From the IMG/VR virus record IMGVR_UViG_2778261393_000002: a stretch of DNA of 29,964 nucleotides; one strand, given 5' to 3'. The notes beneath the pieces are model-generated. The model searched no databases. It was not told the origin of the DNA and worked only from the letters and a program-made list of their open reading frames with translations. Origin of the DNA: a virus (Duplodnaviria; Heunggongvirae; Uroviricota; Caudoviricetes). Made by a program: the position numbers and the translations under genes. Positions 1,562-17,023 of this stretch are shown here, one piece after another; within the stretch, counting starts at the first letter, position 1, and every line of letters starts with the position of its first letter.

Positions 1562-2140
1562 TTACTGAATACGCTCACCAAAGTAAAACTCATGCTGATA
1601 TTCACGTATCAGCCTTTTTTCTTCTTCCTCCAGCTCACGCTTTTTGCGCTTACATGCCTGTAGCTCCCTCCCCTTCTCGCTGGCACTTATCTGATATTGC
1701 TCTTTACGGCGGGAAAAATCCTGTAATGCGCCCCACGGGATACCATAAGCCCCCGTTTTTCTGATACCCGGTATCACATTTCTGAATACCCAGTTACTGA
1801 AACGATGGGCGAACGTGCCAGGCGTCGTTGCTTTGCGGCTACGGGCTATTAGTTTGTAGAAACCTGACTCGCATACAGTTCGCATTGTTTGATTTCCGCC
1901 AAGGGTGGGTATTAAACACTCCCCCTTTTCATCATCATCGAGACGGCGTAACGCAACCTTGTGATCAACAATTTCCAGCGCAGCGCACACGTCAACTGCA
2001 ACAAACCACGGATCGCCGTTCAGATACACCACGCGAACGTTCACACCATCAAAGCGCAGAACGACCAGATCACGAATATCACAGAATTTTTTTACTAGAC
2101 GAGCGTCACCTTTGCCCGTCACGGCAATATTTTTATTCAT
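1562..2140 (-). CDS. Bro-N domain protein, phage antirepressor-like
   Basis: 192-aa ORF. N-terminal region (VRVVYLNGDPWFVAVDVCAALEI ... ESGFYKLIARSRKATTPGTFAHRFSNWVFRNVIPGIRKTGAYG) has the conserved Bro-N pattern. C-terminus is a charged coiled-coil-like tail. Confidence 0.7.
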   Translation of the reverse strand: MNKNIAVTGKGDARLVKKFCDIRDLVVLRFDGVNVRVVYLNGDPWFVAVDVCAALEIVDHKVALRRLDDDEKGECLIPTLGGNQTMRTVCESGFYKLIARSRKATTPGTFAHRFSNWVFRNVIPGIRKTGAYGIPWGALQDFSRRKEQYQISASEKGRELQACKRKKRELEEEEKRLIREYQHEFYFGERIQ

Positions 2141-2199: not shown

Positions 2200-2466
2200 T
2201 TATTGCTGTTTTGTTTTTTCCGGTTTCCATCCTGGGTGCCAATCGCCACGGATCCACGCCTGAATCTCCGAGAGACGATAGCCAGCGGCACGTTCACCAA
2301 TCTTAATACGTTTTGGGAACTTACCTGTCTTTTCCAGTTTCCAGCGTGTTGAATTTGCCAGCGTAGTAAGTGCCACGCATTCTTTTTCACGAATGACACG
2401 ATCAATATCCGGCATTGCAGTAAAATCTTTTTCATCAACAAGTGAATAAACTGACATATCAAACAA
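2200..2466 (-). CDS. alpA: AlpA-family phage transcriptional regulator, excisionase-like
   Basis: Translation contains DRVIREKECVALTTLANSTRWKLEKTGKFPKRIKIG, typical of AlpA/Vis-type winged-helix proteins. Sits immediately downstream of and overlapping the integrase stop. Exact start uncertain (M1, M4 or M18). Confidence 0.75.
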   Translation of the reverse strand: MFDMSVYSLVDEKDFTAMPDIDRVIREKECVALTTLANSTRWKLEKTGKFPKRIKIGERAAGYRLSEIQAWIRGDWHPGWKPEKTKQQ

Positions 2467-3700
2467 CCTCTTTACTCAGTTCAATAACGTTATTATTAAA
2501 TCCGGCTATCGTGTTAAGGTAATTAACCCACATATTAAGAACCTCAAGTTTTTTCTTTACATGCTTGCTTTTATTATAAACACCCGCCACACCTTTAACT
2601 TTATGACCAAGCAGAAGCTCTACAATATAAGGATCGGCACCCATATCGTTAAGCATTGTTGAAAATGTACGCCTGAAATCATGTATGCACCACAGACCAT
2701 TTACATCATGCCCTAGCCGCCTGCATATCCGGCTTGCTGCTCCTGTTATTGTCGCTCGCTTCAGTGATCTACCGATAACACAATCCCGGTGCTTTGTTTC
2801 CGCATAAAGATTAATAACCCATTGTTTTATTCCATCAGGGACTGGTCTTACAATAACCTCGCCGTTCTTGCTGTGCTCTTTTGGAACTGTCCAAATCCAG
2901 TTTTTTAAATCCCATTCTTCCCAAGTGGATAACCGCGCCTCCTGCTGACGGCAACCAAACACCAGGCAGATAACCATAATTCTTCGGTTATGTATTGATG
3001 AAAGGGTAAGTAAATTGTTGCCATAGGCATAAGACCATACGTCAGCGGCTTCATTAATACTCAGAACACGATCCCTTATGCCTGCTGAACGTCCAACATA
3101 ACTAACGTTAATATCACCGAATGGATCGCAACTAATGTATTGCCTGATACGGCAAAAACGTAACGCCTGTTTAATATCAAGAAAAATAGCACCAGACATA
3201 ACAGGAGCATTTTTTTTAATTCTGTCAAATACAGTAAGCCAGGTATGCAATTTGCACTGTTCTATAGCCATATCTCCGATATATGGAAAAATATGCTTTT
3301 CAAATCTTTTTATTAAATACTCATGCTGCTTTCTGGCTGTCCTGGCGTGATTATCGTACCAGTAAAGCACCGCATCCCTTACAGTTACAGGGCGCATGTT
3401 TTTTTCAGCTACAAGTTTTATTTGTCTGCGAGGATCCAGATTTTCCGCCAGCCATTCACGGCACTGGTCGCGTAATCTCCTGGCGGCTGCCAGAGACATA
3501 TCAGGATAACGCCCAAGGGTCAGCCATACCGGAGGGGCATCCCTGCCGCCAATACGATAGTAAAAAACGAAACTAATTCCCCCAACCACGCTTACACGAA
3601 CAGATAGCCCCCGCCCATCAGCCATGATTTTTTGTCTGTCCTGCGGCTTACCTGCAAGACTTTTCAGAAGTTTGTCAGTCAGTTTATTCTCGATAGCCAT
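2459..3700 (-). CDS. int: Tyrosine integrase, P4-like
   Basis: 413 aa from MAIENKL (start codon 3698-3700). Phage-integrase catalytic region visible (HDFRRTF ... LLGHK ... VYN). Paired with alpA as in P4-family elements. The listed ORF extends 24 codons further upstream to 3772. Confidence 0.85.
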   Translation of the reverse strand: MAIENKLTDKLLKSLAGKPQDRQKIMADGRGLSVRVSVVGGISFVFYYRIGGRDAPPVWLTLGRYPDMSLAAARRLRDQCREWLAENLDPRRQIKLVAEKNMRPVTVRDAVLYWYDNHARTARKQHEYLIKRFEKHIFPYIGDMAIEQCKLHTWLTVFDRIKKNAPVMSGAIFLDIKQALRFCRIRQYISCDPFGDINVSYVGRSAGIRDRVLSINEAADVWSYAYGNNLLTLSSIHNRRIMVICLVFGCRQQEARLSTWEEWDLKNWIWTVPKEHSKNGEVIVRPVPDGIKQWVINLYAETKHRDCVIGRSLKRATITGAASRICRRLGHDVNGLWCIHDFRRTFSTMLNDMGADPYIVELLLGHKVKGVAGVYNKSKHVKKKLEVLNMWVNYLNTIAGFNNNVIELSKEVV

Positions 3701-3718
3701 ATGTAGCCTACACGTCAA

Positions 3719-3772
3719 TTTGCAATACACACCCCATCCAAACGCCAACTTGCAATACACATTGCAATACAC
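3719..3772. repeat. Three direct copies of TTGCAATACAC upstream of the integrase start
   Basis: Copies at 3720-3730, 3750-3760 and 3762-3772. The last two are tandem with a 12-bp period. They lie about 20-70 bp upstream of the int start codon. Confidence 0.6.
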
Positions 3773-3849
3773 AAAACCGCGAAAAACACGAAAGGTAATG
3801 AACGGTCATCATAAATACAAAAAACGACATTCCAGACATATCAAGGGTT

Positions 3850-4716
3850 TTAGTGGAGTTGATGAATGGTGGCGACAACTACGGGGAGATAATAGACATA
3901 AATGGCGCGAACCACCGCCGACTGCAGTTGCGTGGCCTGCAGTGTGTCGAGCATCTTGAGACGCTCCATTACAGAATAAAACTGGTTGGCCCCGCGGGTC
4001 TGCCCGTCTTCCTGTGGCTGAAACACATGGATCATTCCCGGTCGTCCGGAAGGCAGTGTTGCCGTAATTCGTGTCCATTTACTGACACCGTAGCCGGGCC
4101 AGTCATCATCCTGAACATGGTAGGCCAGCGCTTTTCCGTGTCGGTTTATTTCCACCCCGGCACGCATAAAACGATCGCCGGTACCATAACCGGGTGTACT
4201 GACACGCTTCGGGCTGATGGTTTTGAATTTCGTCCGGAATAATGACGTGGATTCCGCATCCCATACGGGCTGGACAAAAATTTCACCGTTAAACGTATGG
4301 ACCCCCACCCCTTCACGAATGAATTCGGTAAACGAACGACGCCCTTCCACATCCATCGTACCAAACACCGGATCGCAGTATTCCATCCACGCCGCCTCAA
4401 CATCTTCAATAAAAGCATGTGAATCTGCTTCCGACATCCCCAGCCAGCGCCAGTTGGGACGGTAACTCAGACGAAACATGTGCCCGACAATATGATCCTT
4501 ATGAATTTCCACTGCATTCGATGCAATACCGTTGTTACGGACCAGCTCATCCGCGCGGGCGTTACCCAGATGAATGGAAGGTAAGAGCGCCACGTCGGCA
4601 CTTTCCGGTGCAGGCAGCCATTCTGCCATTTGCCCACCGAACCCGGAACCACCACCAGAATATCCCATGCTTTGCCGTAAAGGCTGCCCATGAATATCCA
4701 CCAGTTCCCCGTTCAC
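3850..4716 (-). pseudogene. B: Lambda-like portal protein (gpB), N-terminal fragment only
   Basis: 288-aa ORF co-linear with the lambda gpB N-terminus as I recall it (YSGGGSGFGGQ, LLP..GNARADELVRNNG, LFRTKFKTISPKRVSTP, IHVFQPQEDGQTRGANQFYSVMERLKMLDTLQATQLQSA). Similarity ends near residue 271 (about nt 3900). Lambda gpB is about 533 aa, so the C-terminal half is missing. Confidence 0.8.
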
Positions 4717-4925
4717 AGCCCCACTCCTGCCGGGCCACGACGCCGTCCGGATACACCCAGCGCACTTTCCAGCTCTTCAATATACTGACGCAGTTCACCA
4801 ATTGTCGCCCGCGAATACTGAACCTGACGCCCGTCCTTGCTGACGGAAACCACAGCACGTCCGATCATCAGTTCATGTAACGCCCGGCGGGCATCGCATA
4901 GCATTTCATGCGTATAAATCATCAC
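4713..4925 (-). CDS. W: Head-tail joining protein, lambda gpW-like
   Basis: 70 aa. ARRALHELMIGRAVVSVSKDGRQVQYSRATIGELRQYIEELE ... RRRGPAG matches the lambda gpW pattern. Position between terminase large subunit and portal as in lambda. Confidence 0.75.
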   Translation of the reverse strand: MMIYTHEMLCDARRALHELMIGRAVVSVSKDGRQVQYSRATIGELRQYIEELESALGVSGRRRGPAGVGL

Positions 4926-6845
4926 TTATCCTCCACTCAGAGCAGCCGCGATTTCTTCAATAGTCATTTCATCGTCGTCCTGTTCATCTCTTCTGGCGCG
5001 GGCCAGTGCATCCAGATCCAGTTGCCACCGCTGAACGGAAATGCGCAGCGCTGCATAGGCATACACCAGACAGTCCAGAGCTTCATTACGCCGTTTTCTG
5101 GCATCCCACTGGAGTTTCACCCGCCCGTTCACAACTTTTTCAACCAGCTCTTCTGCCACGAGTTGTTTAGCTTCAACATCAGAAAAAATGTCCGGGTTAT
5201 CCGGAAAACGGAAGGTATACGGTGCGACTTCACTGGCAGATACCACCGGCAGGGCAAAACGCGCATACAGCATTTCCTTGACGGTATCGGAACCCACCTC
5301 ACACAAAAACACCCCACGCTGGTTTCGCTTTTTTGGCATGGTGATCACCGGCTTGCCGTACACCGACGCCCCTTTGATGGGGAGCACAAAAAAAGTGCCG
5401 TGTTTTCTGGATCGCTGATACACAATGTCCTGGTCAATACCACCGGTATCCCAGCAGACGCGGGAAATGGAAATTTCAGTGCCATCTGCATGACGGTATT
5501 TTTTCCGGATCACGGCATCAACGCGTTTAAGGGTGTCCTCATCTTCCGGTCTCCCCATGATGATCTGCTTGTCAATCAGAAAAGCTTCTTCGCCAGGAGC
5601 CCAGCCCCAGACATAAATCTCATAACGGTTTTTCTGAGAGTCGATCCCTGCGGTCAGGTAAACCACCCGCAGGGGAACCTGCGCATCATAGTGGCAGACT
5701 TTTTCCAGCAATAACTCAAAGCTCAGTTTTTCTGCCACAGCCTCTTCATAAGGCTCCCCCAGCGTGGTGTTAATGAACGTCTTGACGCCATTCGGATCCT
5801 TCAGTGCATCAAGCCAGTCATAAACAATCTGTACCCAGGTGGTGAACGGGCTGTATGCCGTCCAGATGTGGTACGAGATTGAGCGCGGTGGCGGGATTTC
5901 CTCATCACCGGCGCTGTAAAATGTCAGACCGTCACGCGTCCACATCCCGGTATTGTCACAAATCCACCGCCCGTCGGTCTGGTCAAGTTCCGACTGACGG
6001 ATCGCGCAGCCATTATGTTCACACAGGTAATACACCGTCTCCGGCTTGCCCTTCTCCCATTTCAGGCCAAAGGTTGTCGCATCATCGCCAAACTTCAGAT
6101 ACTGGGCTTCACCACAATGAGGGCATGGCACATAAAACCGCATAAAATGTGCAGATTCGTTCGCGGCTTTTTCAATCTGGCAAAAACCTTTAATTTTGGG
6201 CGTTGAGCCGCGTATGGATTTAGGCCATACCGAACCTTCGATACGCTTATCGCCAAGCAGAGTTGGTGAACCTTCTTTTTCCACATCCGGTTCAAACGAG
6301 GAGAGTTCGTCATAGCAGACCACATCCACAGATTTTTCACGGTAGTTTTTGGCAGCAGCTCCGCCCAGACACCAGAATCCCACACCGGAGGAGAAACGTT
6401 TCAGGGTAAGCGTGTTGTCCCGATGTTTTCTGCCAAACCACGGAGCCAGCTCCAGTAATACAGGAACGTCTCTTATCGTTGGTTCGACATGGGATTTCAT
6501 AAAATCTTCTGCCGCAGAATCTGTCGGCTGAAAAAGCAGGCTGTTACGGGATTTGTGTTCAATAAAATAAGCCTCCACCCCCAACAGCATTTTGGTGTAA
6601 CCAACACGCGCCGATTTAATCAGATTAACGGTGCGGATCCGGTCATTCCCCATGCTGTTCATGATGGCAACCTGAAACGGCAGTGTTTCCCATTGCCCGG
6701 GAGTATATGAAGACTCTTTTGGCAGATAATAATGCTGATCAGCCCACTGAACTGTCGTCAGTGGTACCGGAATATTGAGAGATACAAGCCCTGTTGCTAT
6801 CGCACCGGCTGCATTAGCTGCCTTCTGTGCGTCTGAAATCATCAA
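4926..6845 (-). CDS. A: Terminase large subunit, lambda gpA-like
   Basis: 639 aa, co-linear with lambda gpA along the whole length ([94 protein letters not shown]). Confidence 0.95.
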
Positions 6846-7362
6846 TCCACCCGCCTACGTTCTCACCAGCTTTAGCTGCAACGTTGGAGGCTTTTGCGAT
6901 TTCAGTTTTCACCACATCAAGGTGTGACGGTGAAATATCCGGATATTTACGCTGTAATGTCAGCGGCACACGTACAAGTATCCCCGAAATCTCCTGTGCC
7001 ACACGTTGCAGAATGAAGGTAAACAATTCCGTTTCCAGTACCAGCCCTTCTTCGCGGGCATTTTTCAGTTCCTGTGCATCAGCCTGTGCTTTTGTGAGTC
7101 GGTAGCGCTCATAGTCAATGGTGCCGGGTTGTAAATCTGATTCCGCAGCCGCACGCAAATCCTCGGTCTCTTTGCGGAGTTTTTCGTTTTCAATATCGGC
7201 TTCGCGCTGCGCATACCACTGAATTGCCATGGCGGTATCAAATACAGATTCAACCCCCTTACTACCACCAGAGACACAAGAGAGCCCCTGAGACTGCCAG
7301 CGTTCAATCGTTCGTGGATCCACGTTGAAAATTTCCGCGAGCTTCTTTTTATTAACCTTCAT
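6814..7362 (-). CDS. nu1: Terminase small subunit, lambda Nu1-like
   Basis: Start taken at [12 protein letters not shown] (codon 7360-7362), matching the lambda Nu1 N-terminus MEVNKKQLADIF. Conserved stretch [27 protein letters not shown]. The 3' end overlaps the terminase large-subunit start. Confidence 0.9.
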
Positions 7363-7387
7363 AAAACATTTCCATATCAAATGCAGG

Positions 7388-7440
7388 GTCCGACATGGAA
7401 GTGCTCAAAAACGTCTTTTTCGGGCACTTTCATGTCGGAC
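7388..7440. repeat. 53-bp palindrome between cos and the Nu1 start
   Basis: Perfect 10-bp arms GTCCGACATG (7388-7397) and CATGTCGGAC (7431-7440) with partly self-complementary interior. Lies in the cosB-equivalent region. Confidence 0.6.
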
Positions 7441-7500
7441 CTTTTACGGATGTGATTGATGAAAAAACAATGAGTTATACACGAGAAGTACCGACACGCT

Positions 7501-7560
7501 TTTTCCCGAAAAATTTTCATAAATAGCGAAAATCCGCGCCGCTGCCGCCCCGTGGCAGAC
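7501..7560 (-). other. Cohesive end site (cosN/cosB-like)
   Basis: Minus-strand sequence GGGGCGGCAGCGGCGCGGATTTTCGCTATTTATGAAAATTTTTCGGG closely matches the lambda left end GGGCGGCGACCTCGCGGGTTTTCGCTATTTATGAAAATTTTCCGG as recalled. cosN analogue at about 7539-7550, upstream of Nu1. Confidence 0.75.
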
Positions 7561-8045: not shown

Positions 8046-8912
8046 CTAAGCGAGGTTCTGGTTTTCAAATTGTTCCGGACTGAGGCCGCCACACCAACTG
8101 TGCCGCCGCCACCGATTGTAATCACATTCGATATAATTAAACACCGTTGCCCGCATTATTTCCCGGCTGATAAAGTGTTCTCCATGGATACATTCCACTT
8201 TCAGCGAATGAAAGAAGCTTTCCACGCAGGCATTATCGTAGCAGCAACCTTTTGCGCTCATACTTCCACGCAGATTATGCCGCTTCAGTTGCGCCTGATA
8301 ATCTGCTGAACAGTACTGGCCTCCACGGTCCGTGTGAACGATAACGTTCCAGGGCCTCTTACGCCGCCACAGCGCCATCTGCAGGGCATCGCAGGCCAGT
8401 TGCGCCGTCATGCGTGGCGACATTGACCAGCCAATAACGGCACGTGACCACAGGTCAATGACCACTGCCAGATACAGCCAGCCTTCATCTGTACGTAAGT
8501 ACGTGATGTCTCCTGCCCACTTCTGGTTCGGGCCACTGGCGTAAAAATCCTGCTCCAACAGATTTTCTGACACAGGCAGGCCGTGTGCGCGGTAGCTGAC
8601 CGGGCTGAACTTCCGGGAGGCCTTTGCCCTCAGTCCCTGACGGCGCAGGCTTGCCGCCACGGTTTTTTCGTTAAAGGGGTAACCCTGAGCACGCAGTTCA
8701 TCCGTCAGGCGTGGGGCACCGTAACGCTGTTTTGACCGGGTAAAAGCCGCGAGGACAACGCTGTCGCAGTGTTGGCGGAACTGCTGACGCGTGCTTATCC
8801 TTGTCCGCCGCTGACACCACGTATACCAGCCGCTGCGGGCCACCCGGAGCACGCGGCACATTGCTTTGATGCTGAACTCAGCCTGATGTTTTTCAATAAA
8901 GACATACTTCAT
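8046..8912 (-). CDS. insF: IS3 transposase OrfB
   Basis: 288 aa with DDE transposase/integrase core (WAGDITYL ... HTDRGGQY ... [11 protein letters not shown]). Matches IS3 InsF as remembered. Confidence 0.95.
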
Positions 8913-9217
8913 TTCAGGCGCTTCGCGAAGTATGTCGCGGCCTTTTGGAGGATAGCCAGCTCTTCATCCCGTTCTGCCAGCTGGCGTTTGAGACGTGCAA
9001 TCTCGGTAGACATCTCCAGTTCACGTTCAGAAGACGTCTGCTGATTTTGCTGTTTACTGCGCCAGTTGTAGAGCTGTGATTCATACAGGCTGAGTTCACG
9101 GGCTGCGGCAGTAACACCGATGCGTTCAGCAAGCTTCAGGGCTTCACTGCGAAATTCAGGCGAATGCTGTTTACGGGGTTTTTTACTGGTTGATACTGTT
9201 TTTGTCATGTGAGTCAC
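8909..9217 (-). CDS. insE: IS3 transposase OrfA (HTH)
   Basis: 102 aa ending in a leucine-zipper-like segment. Its stop overlaps the orfB ATG in the -1 frame, as expected for IS3-family programmed frameshifting. Confidence 0.95.
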
Positions 9218-9781: not shown

Positions 9782-10005
9782 ACCATATCGCCCGGTTTAA
9801 TCCCCCTCACTATCCGGCACTCCCACACAGGAGTTACCAGTCGGTACTGAGGACATAGTTAATCCGGGAATACAATGAAAATACAGCACATCTGGCATAC
9901 TTTAATAAACATTAAAAATATGAGATTTCAACTCATTGTTTAGGTTTTGTTTAAATTTCTACAAATACGATTCAACAACCTTAAAAACACAACGGGAATA
10001 ACACT

Positions 10006-13458: not shown

Positions 13459-13612
13459 AGGATGATCCTTTTTCTATGTGAATCATCACCACTGCTGACG
13501 CCAATCAGTATGGTGGTGAACTGTGCAGGGTTGGCGTAACCGGGAAAAAGGAACCGGCGCGGATCGCTCCGCCCCCACACAGCCCACCATTGAGATGTGA
13601 CAGTGCAAACGA

Positions 13613-13637
13613 CAATAAAAAAGACGCTGGCGCGTCT
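13613..13637 (-). terminator. tR'-like Rho-independent terminator downstream of Q
   Basis: Stem AGACGC (13622-13627) and GCGTCT (13632-13637) with 4-nt loop, then a U-run on the minus strand (plus-strand AATAAAAA 13613-13620). About 95 nt downstream of the Q stop, as expected for a late-promoter leader terminator. Confidence 0.5.
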
Positions 13638-13731
13638 GTTGTCGCCTTTTTCATCCGGGACGCCAATCCCGACGCCAGATTTTGCTGGCGCGTGAGGAAT
13701 ATAGCCCCGGACAATGTGTCTGGTCAAGCTC

Positions 13732-16656: not shown

Positions 16657-16812
16657 TTACTCCTCAGGTTCGTAAGCTGTGAAGACAGCGACCTCCGTCT
16701 GGCCGGTTCGGATTCGTACCTCGCAGAGGTCTTTCCTCGTTACCAGTGCCGTCACAATGACGGTTAAACAGATGACGATCAGGGCGATTAACATCGCCTT
16801 TTGCTGCTTCAT
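16657..16812 (-). CDS. hokD: Hok/Gef-family type I toxin
   Basis: 51 aa MKQQKAMLIALIVICLTVIVTALVTRKDLCEVRIRTGQTEVAVFTAYEPEE with AAGGAG SD, matching HokD/RelF as recalled. An overlapping upstream frame (to 16869) is the mok-like reading frame. Confidence 0.85.
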   Translation of the reverse strand: MKQQKAMLIALIVICLTVIVTALVTRKDLCEVRIRTGQTEVAVFTAYEPEE

Positions 16813-17023
16813 AGCCTGCTTCTCCTTGCCTTTCGGCACGTAAGAGGCTAACCTAGATTTGCCGTTCATAGATTGAGCCTCAGATTAATGTTAAGCGTCT
16901 TGCAGGACGCGTAATGTTAACTGGGGCTTTTCTCTATCTGCCTTTGGTGTTCATGCCTGAGACAGATAGCCTCAAGCACCCGCAGCCATTCTACTTAACT
17001 CCCGTTACCTCGCCAATATAAAA

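Follow-up and report, generated by a model that had tools for sequence, protein, structure and literature searches.

The attP of phage lambda holds five arm-type sites, P1, P2 and P'1-P'3, which the N-domain of Int binds and of which integration and excision make different use. The directionality factors of lambda, P2 and KplE1 have their sites on a single arm, flanked by the arm-type sites on the outside and by the core on the inside.

For helper-embedded PICIs (HE-PICIs), Tommasini, Mageeney and Williams (2023; NAR Genom Bioinform 5:lqad036; PMC10111431) described 491 elements at 14 sites in lambda-type late genes. Among those sites is B:Phage_portal_2:241 with the identity block 'aaggcgat'. 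A doubled motif, tgTGTATTGCantgTGTATTGCa, was reported to occur twice per attP in the same orientation, at 81 ± 2 nt from the centre on one side and at 132 ± 2 nt on the int side. As its binding partners, that study proposed either AlpA or the arm domains of Int.

The locus described here belongs to this family. The window, i.e. the whole stretch of 29,964 nt that was analysed (IMG/VR record IMGVR_UViG_2778261393_000002, Caudoviricetes), contains an HE-PICI satellite; it occupies site B:Phage_portal_2:241 within the portal gene of a lambda-like prophage. As in the published elements of this site, the gene order is int-alpA-Bro, and the insertion lies in a lambda-family portal gene, with a Pfam match that extends to profile position 242. 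Read in reverse complement, window positions 3750-3774 give TGTGTATTGCAATGTGTATTGCAA, matching the published tgTGTATTGCantgTGTATTGCa; from the attP centre to the near edge of this motif the distance is about 132 nt. The tandem pair was already published in 2023. In contrast to the four half-sites of the paper, the window holds an exact single extra copy 30 nt nearer to int, as do 22 of 22 relatives. A fifth copy is mentioned neither in the text of PMC10111431 nor in the legend of its Supplementary Figure 4. The present analysis contributes this fifth copy, conserved across the portal group, and the observation that the layout, though not the sequence, is common to P4 and an hpt PICI. The outcome adds one site and two comparisons to the 2023 description and leaves the current understanding unchanged.

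Repeats and satellite genes in the window

The 11-mer TTGCAATACAC was found on the plus strand at 3720-3730, 3750-3760 and 3762-3772; no fourth exact copy was detected in the window. Read in the sense of int, it is GTGTATTGCAA. The start-to-start spacing is 30 nt from 3720 to 3750 and 12 nt from 3750 to 3762. A sequence-only reading of this DNA had reported three copies at 3720, 3750 and 3762, the last two in tandem, just upstream of the int start. The exact scan agrees with this description, and the distances to the int ATG (3700, minus strand) were measured as 20-72 nt. Three exact 11-mers, all within 53 nt, compare with 0.014 expected under a uniform model for 2 x 29,964 nt. Allowing up to two mismatches, seven matches were obtained in the window, four of them outside the cluster, versus 11.85 from shuffles; the extra matches are at or below chance. 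The 8-mer TGTATTGC also occurs exactly at 3136-3143 (plus strand), in opposite orientation and 557 nt into int. It is kept in the portal group, but probably represents a chance match because it sits in coding sequence.

The two copies in tandem form the doubled candidate arm motif on the minus strand. Half-site 1 (3762-3772) is the core-proximal one, and half-site 2 (3750-3760) follows at a distance of 12 nt. The doubled motif is abutted by a flank of 13 nt (3773-3785, minus strand), which reads TTTTCGCGGTTTT in int sense. The single extra copy (3720-3730, minus strand) is located 30 nt int-ward of the pair.

The int gene (2459-3700, minus strand) encodes a tyrosine integrase with the domains PF13356, PF22022 and PF00589, in the order N-terminal arm DNA-binding, central and catalytic. 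The match to PF13356 (Arm-DNA-bind_3) covers residues 7-93 with an E-value of 1e-18; the N-terminus reads MAIENKL. This N-terminal domain matches the solved N-domains of the CP4-like integrases 3JTZ and 3JU0. The alpA gene (2200-2457, minus strand; PF05930, E-value 3.8e-15) encodes an excisionase/regulator of the AlpA family. Its ATG is separated from the int stop codon by 1 nt (junction TGATATG). A Bro-N gene follows after alpA (1562-2140, minus strand).

On the other side of the repeats, the helper portal gene, a member of the lambda B family that the satellite interrupts, is represented by its 5' part at 3893-4716 on the minus strand. This part matches profile positions 2-242 of 354 of PF05136, and after ...RAIY, near 3893, its frame no longer follows lambda B. 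The genes int, alpA and Bro-N, the portal fragment, gpW, the large terminase and Nu1 are all encoded on the minus strand. Hence int and alpA are adjacent and have the same orientation as the interrupted helper late gene. No tRNA was found in the window, and Rfam returned no RNA family in the repeat region. In the helper prophage, Rfam matches above the gathering score were obtained at 13509-13704 and 16807-16981 (minus strand), namely C4 antisense RNA with its a1/b1 targets, isrK and the sok antitoxin RNA.

The satellite portion inside the window amounts to 3.9 kb; the far end of the element lies beyond the window edge. In the nearest public contig (IMGVR_UViG_2778261276_000011; L007/L208) Int is identical, and positions 4165-7526 of the window are matched with 100% identity. 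Between the two sequences 184 positions differ, 182 of them between 141 and 900 in a 'dynamic zone' with YlcI-like and Bro genes. At 11417-14010 of L007 the capsid gene of the satellite (Phage_cap_E) breaks off at about residue 203 and continues directly into the lambda tail genes L, K (JAB/NlpC) and I. This deletion removed the satellite far arm together with the helper genes from the 3' half of portal through tail gene M, and left the satellite stranded. In the window, an element of the IS3 family (orfA/orfB) was detected at 8046-9217, just upstream of the helper Nu1/terminase genes. The IS3 copy is thus placed between the helper late promoter region and the head genes leading into the satellite. 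Given the loss of the far arm in the nearest contig and the IS3 insertion upstream of Nu1, the copy in the window may be a stranded remnant as well.

Attachment-site arms in related elements

Elements with a match of about 81% to the window were found in E. coli strains 48 (L001) and SCU-106 (L002), where they split the portal genes of two different lambdoid prophages. Beside int lies the 5' half of portal, with its 3' half at the opposite end of the satellite. With a size of 10.7-11.8 kb, these satellites carry int, alpA, Bro-N, Icd-like, primase or helicase, SSB, capsid, decoration and small terminase genes. A further relative (L003), whose Int is 53% identical, interrupts the major capsid gene instead of portal.

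In L001 and L002 exactly five copies with at most one mismatch were detected in 30-40 kb, all on one strand: three on the int side and a distal tandem pair. The distal pair consists of TCGCAATACAC plus TTGCAATACAC or CTGCAATACAC and lies past the final gene, near the distal end of the element. The 13-nt flank TTTTCGCGGTTTT was not found beside this other-arm pair. A distal pair was also met in further loci (L008, L009, L013 and others). Where IMG/VR loci of the portal group show the second pair, it is always located 10.0-10.6 kb downstream of the int ATG; for L026 a single exact copy was the only one at this distance. Thus, in complete relatives of three target-site groups, each arm carries a repeated motif that differs from the core sequence and keeps a fixed distance to the crossover; the window comprises the int-side arm only.

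The sequence-only reading had pointed to the upstream regions of homologous int genes and to the other end of the element as places where the motif should recur. Both were confirmed. The int-side pair is present in each of the 79 IMG/VR relatives for which upstream sequence is available (53 different sequences), in the E. coli relatives and in a Kosakonia element whose Int is 51% identical; the tandem pair at the other end is found in the complete homologous elements. Some variation was observed among the insertion-site groups. In the capsid-site group the pair is located at -35/-23, usually with a one-mismatch copy, TGTGTTGC, on the core side, which one subgroup lacks. The protease-site group carries TGCATTGC further upstream. 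In one protease-site HE-PICI (L083, about 9956-9987) the pair is replaced by a triple tandem at -45, -33 and -21 from the ATG. Repeats of GTGGGATAA in L005 were considered as arm sites and rejected; they look like origin iterons, and L005 reaches neither the core nor the far arm.

The attP core was rebuilt from the junctions of L001 (8760-8774 and 20590-20606) and L002 (4800-4815 and 15515-15530). It reads CATAAA-N5-TTTATG and lies within the portal codons A-I-V-K-A-M-Y. The identity blocks of the relatives are AAAGCCAT or AAGGCGAT; the block of L002 is 'aaggcgat', the B_Phage_portal_2_241 identity block in the supplement of PMC10111431. By alignment to these relatives, the attL core of the window was placed at 3897-3909 (no strand assigned), with the P-side hexamer CATAAA followed by the predicted crossover ATGGCGCG at 3902-3909, the point at which the portal frame leaves lambda B. 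The crossover block of the window reads CGCGCCAT and not AAGGCGAT, following the portal allele of the host phage. N5 always equals this allele, with TGGCT in L001, TCGCC in L002 and TGGCG in the window. This match suggests that each satellite carries the overlap sequence of its last-used portal allele.

Between the centre of the pair in the window and the centre of the block (3905.5) 144 nt were measured, and about 132 nt (131.5) from the near edge. In the portal, capsid E and protease C groups the centre of the int-side pair is 143-146 nt and that of the distal pair 87-92 nt away from the identity block. The region with the repeats is the int-side arm of attL. As the repeats mark an arm of the attachment site, they define the end of the element and are needed to predict excision and restoration of the portal gene. 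Furthermore, the motif provides a precise signature to find and delimit HE-PICIs.

The third copy at 3720-3730 is specific for the portal-site (B:241) group, whose Int is at least 89% identical to that of the window. All 22 IMG/VR loci of this group, as well as L001 and L002, carry a single copy at this position. It is exact throughout, 30 nt away from the pair and at -28 to -31 relative to the ATG. Thus, the layout of the portal group is 3+2 sites. Twelve unique sequences were aligned; they represent three lineages in which int and its upstream DNA are about 81% identical to the window. Neither the pair, nor the 13-nt flank (12 of 12), nor the single copy shows any change, whereas variation and indels occur in the 18-nt spacer and in the 17-20 nt before the ATG. 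This contrast with the spacer and leader indicates selection on the sites, the single copy included.

Candidate binding proteins of the repeats

The repeats are probably arm-type sites for the N-terminal arm domain of the satellite Int, located on the int-side arm of attL; this prediction is made from sequence comparison. The sequence-only reading had named arm-type Int sites of attL/attP or AlpA sites as candidates. Such a role is supported by the position on the int-side arm of attL and by PF13356 in Int. We infer Int as the binding partner, in preference to AlpA, from the layout of the sites, i.e. equal pairs on both arms at the outer positions. No published result on binding by the Int N-domain or on a requirement for the sites was found for HE-PICI Int in a literature search.

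Int protomers bound at the core (about 3897-3909) would also reach the pair at 3750-3772 and, in a complete element, would contact the co-oriented pair of the other arm too. The arms would fold into a recombination complex, either for integration or, with AlpA as directionality factor, for excision, which would restore the portal gene. In the portal group the extra copy at 3720-3730 would make the layout 3+2. Since the int start codon is no more than 72 nt away from any of the three sites, their occupation would probably also lower the expression of int-alpA, an effect shown for P4 Int and for IntS of KplE1. IntS of KplE1 represses its own promoter via an arm-type site at the -10 box, and P4 Int represses Pint via DNA binding at similar positions (both PMC2951348). 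By analogy, autoregulation of int through the sites is plausible, but a scan of 3600-4000 gave no sigma-70 consensus promoter on which it could act. The int genes of HE-PICIs may instead be read through from helper late transcription (PMC10111431). Two further candidate elements of the region were discarded: a weak terminator-like hairpin at 3791-3777 is not kept in the E. coli relatives, and an IHF site near 3862 (plus strand), matching 12 of 13 consensus positions by eye, is not conserved in relatives.

Binding of AlpA to the repeats, bending the arms in excision or controlling int-alpA transcription, is the main alternative, though an unlikely one. AlpA was named as a possible binder in PMC10111431, and Fillol-Salom 2018 cites an earlier suggestion that AlpA controls int expression in P4-like phage. 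The protein (PF05930) is 59-100% identical across the sampled HE-PICI groups that have the motif, and its helix-turn-helix is nearly identical. In the hpt PICI with a different motif AlpA is far more diverged (33%). However, covariation cannot separate Int from AlpA, because both are conserved with the motif and both diverge in the hpt PICI. Between the portal and the capsid group, identity is 63% for the Int arm domain and 67% for AlpA; towards the hpt PICI it is 55% and 33%, respectively.

The direct coupling of int and alpA is in line with AlpA as a regulator, as with 1 nt from stop to ATG a promoter upstream of int would serve alpA too. In the capsid- and protease-site groups, however, the pair stops about 15 nt short of the int ATG. 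This leaves no room for an activated downstream promoter, so that the pair cannot serve as an upstream activator site of int there. For EcCICFT073 it was reported that AlpA activates PalpA, but not Pint (PMC6092414). In P4, which has the same layout, the repeats are annotated as attP arm repeats. For its AlpA homologue Vis, an action on int via mRNA binding was suggested (Piazzolla 2006, discussed by Panis 2010, PMC2951348). Literature on PDB 8C3T, an AlpA-family protein, contained nothing relevant.

The layout of the sites also differs from that of directionality factors. Sites of such factors are known on one arm, inside the arm-type sites, whereas the motif forms equal tandem pairs at the outer positions of both arms. 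Thus, the arm domain of Int is preferred as the binding partner of the repeats.

It is improbable that the repeats are promoter elements or sites of a host or helper-phage factor without a role in recombination. They are located directly upstream of int, TTGCAA within the motif corresponds to 4 of 6 positions of the -35 consensus by direct reading, and 'some unknown DNA binding protein' was left open in PMC10111431. Nevertheless, no -10 hexamer at 16-18 nt was found for any of the copies, and a scan of 3600-4000 revealed no sigma-70 consensus promoter. When the arms of several groups were compared visually in int sense, no conserved -35/-10 pair was seen. Against this explanation stand also the second pair at the far end of the element, past the last gene, and the distances to the crossover, which are fixed among groups with different target genes. 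The motif is unlike an IHF site (PMC10111431).

A recent local duplication or a coding function of the repeats, within a plus-strand ORF of 111 aa at 3624-3959 that covers them with a repeated NLQYT, is highly improbable: the repeats are invariant across lineages of about 81% identity, the motif recurs about 10 kb away on the other arm, and the ORF, which is antisense to the int start and the portal fragment, is rejected because flank indels of 1-3 nt break its frame.

Comparison with lambda, KplE1, P4 and hpt PICI

As in lambda attP, five sites are present in the portal group, split 2+3, with a distance of roughly 50-150 nt to the core in lambda. The three-site arm is the int-side arm in the satellite, where int is transcribed away from att, and the arm domain (PF13356) belongs to another Pfam family than that of lambda Int.

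The attachment region of KplE1 (CPS-53; Panis et al. 2010, PMC2951348) resembles the window in that int is transcribed away from attL. Hence the arm-type sites, predicted ones in the case of the window, are located in the regulatory region of int in both elements. KplE1 differs in having an integrase of another lineage, TorI as directionality factor and a tRNA target. Moreover, its sites and promoter were mapped experimentally, whereas the binding sites of the window are predicted.

The layout of paired sites is shared with P4 (Pierson and Kahn 1987; NC_001609). Its 'attP arm sequence repeat' 12-mers form co-oriented pairs with a 12-nt period on both arms. The pair centres are 134 and 75 nt away from the core, compared with 144 and 88 nt here. 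The int-side pair of P4 is located 16 nt upstream of the int ATG, and extra copies were noted, one overlapping the int start and one within int. P4 also has an Int with an arm-binding N-domain and a partner of the AlpA/Vis family. In contrast, the motif is GGGGGCAT in P4 and TGTATTGC here, the P4 target is not a phage portal gene, and the single copy at the start of P4 int is inverted. The integrase of the window had been called P4-like in the sequence-only reading. For domain architecture and attP layout this holds, but not for the sequence, as Int is 23% identical to P4 Int. The AlpA of the window is 34% identical to Vis. These low identities indicate a design common to P4 and the satellite rather than the same element.

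A doubled motif was also identified in an hpt PICI of E. coli KSC9 (L087), which encodes capsid, protease, portal and terminase genes. Here GTATATCACTCG/GTGTATCACTCG occurs with a 12-nt period on both arms (L087 17138-17161 and 32643-32666), and the TATCACTC pairs are about 154 and 78 nt away from the core of this element. Thus, the layout is not restricted to HE-PICIs; only the sequence of the motif is.

From these comparisons, 3720-3730 may be a functional fifth Int arm site specific for the portal group, with 3+2 subsets serving integration, excision and int repression, added to an ancestral P4-type layout; we regard the chances of this assignment as even. Its second part, held jointly with the first at the same level, is that the two pairs with their 12-nt period would be ancestral, while the sequences differ by lineage: GGGGGCAT in P4, TATCACTC in the hpt PICI and TGTATTGC in HE-PICIs. 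If this is true, the layout stayed constant while the core specificity moved to many phage late genes. By analogy, the systems compared suggest a general design, in which constant arms and an arm domain are combined with an exchangeable core specificity. Such a constant-arm design could explain how this integrase clade is retargeted to new phage late genes.
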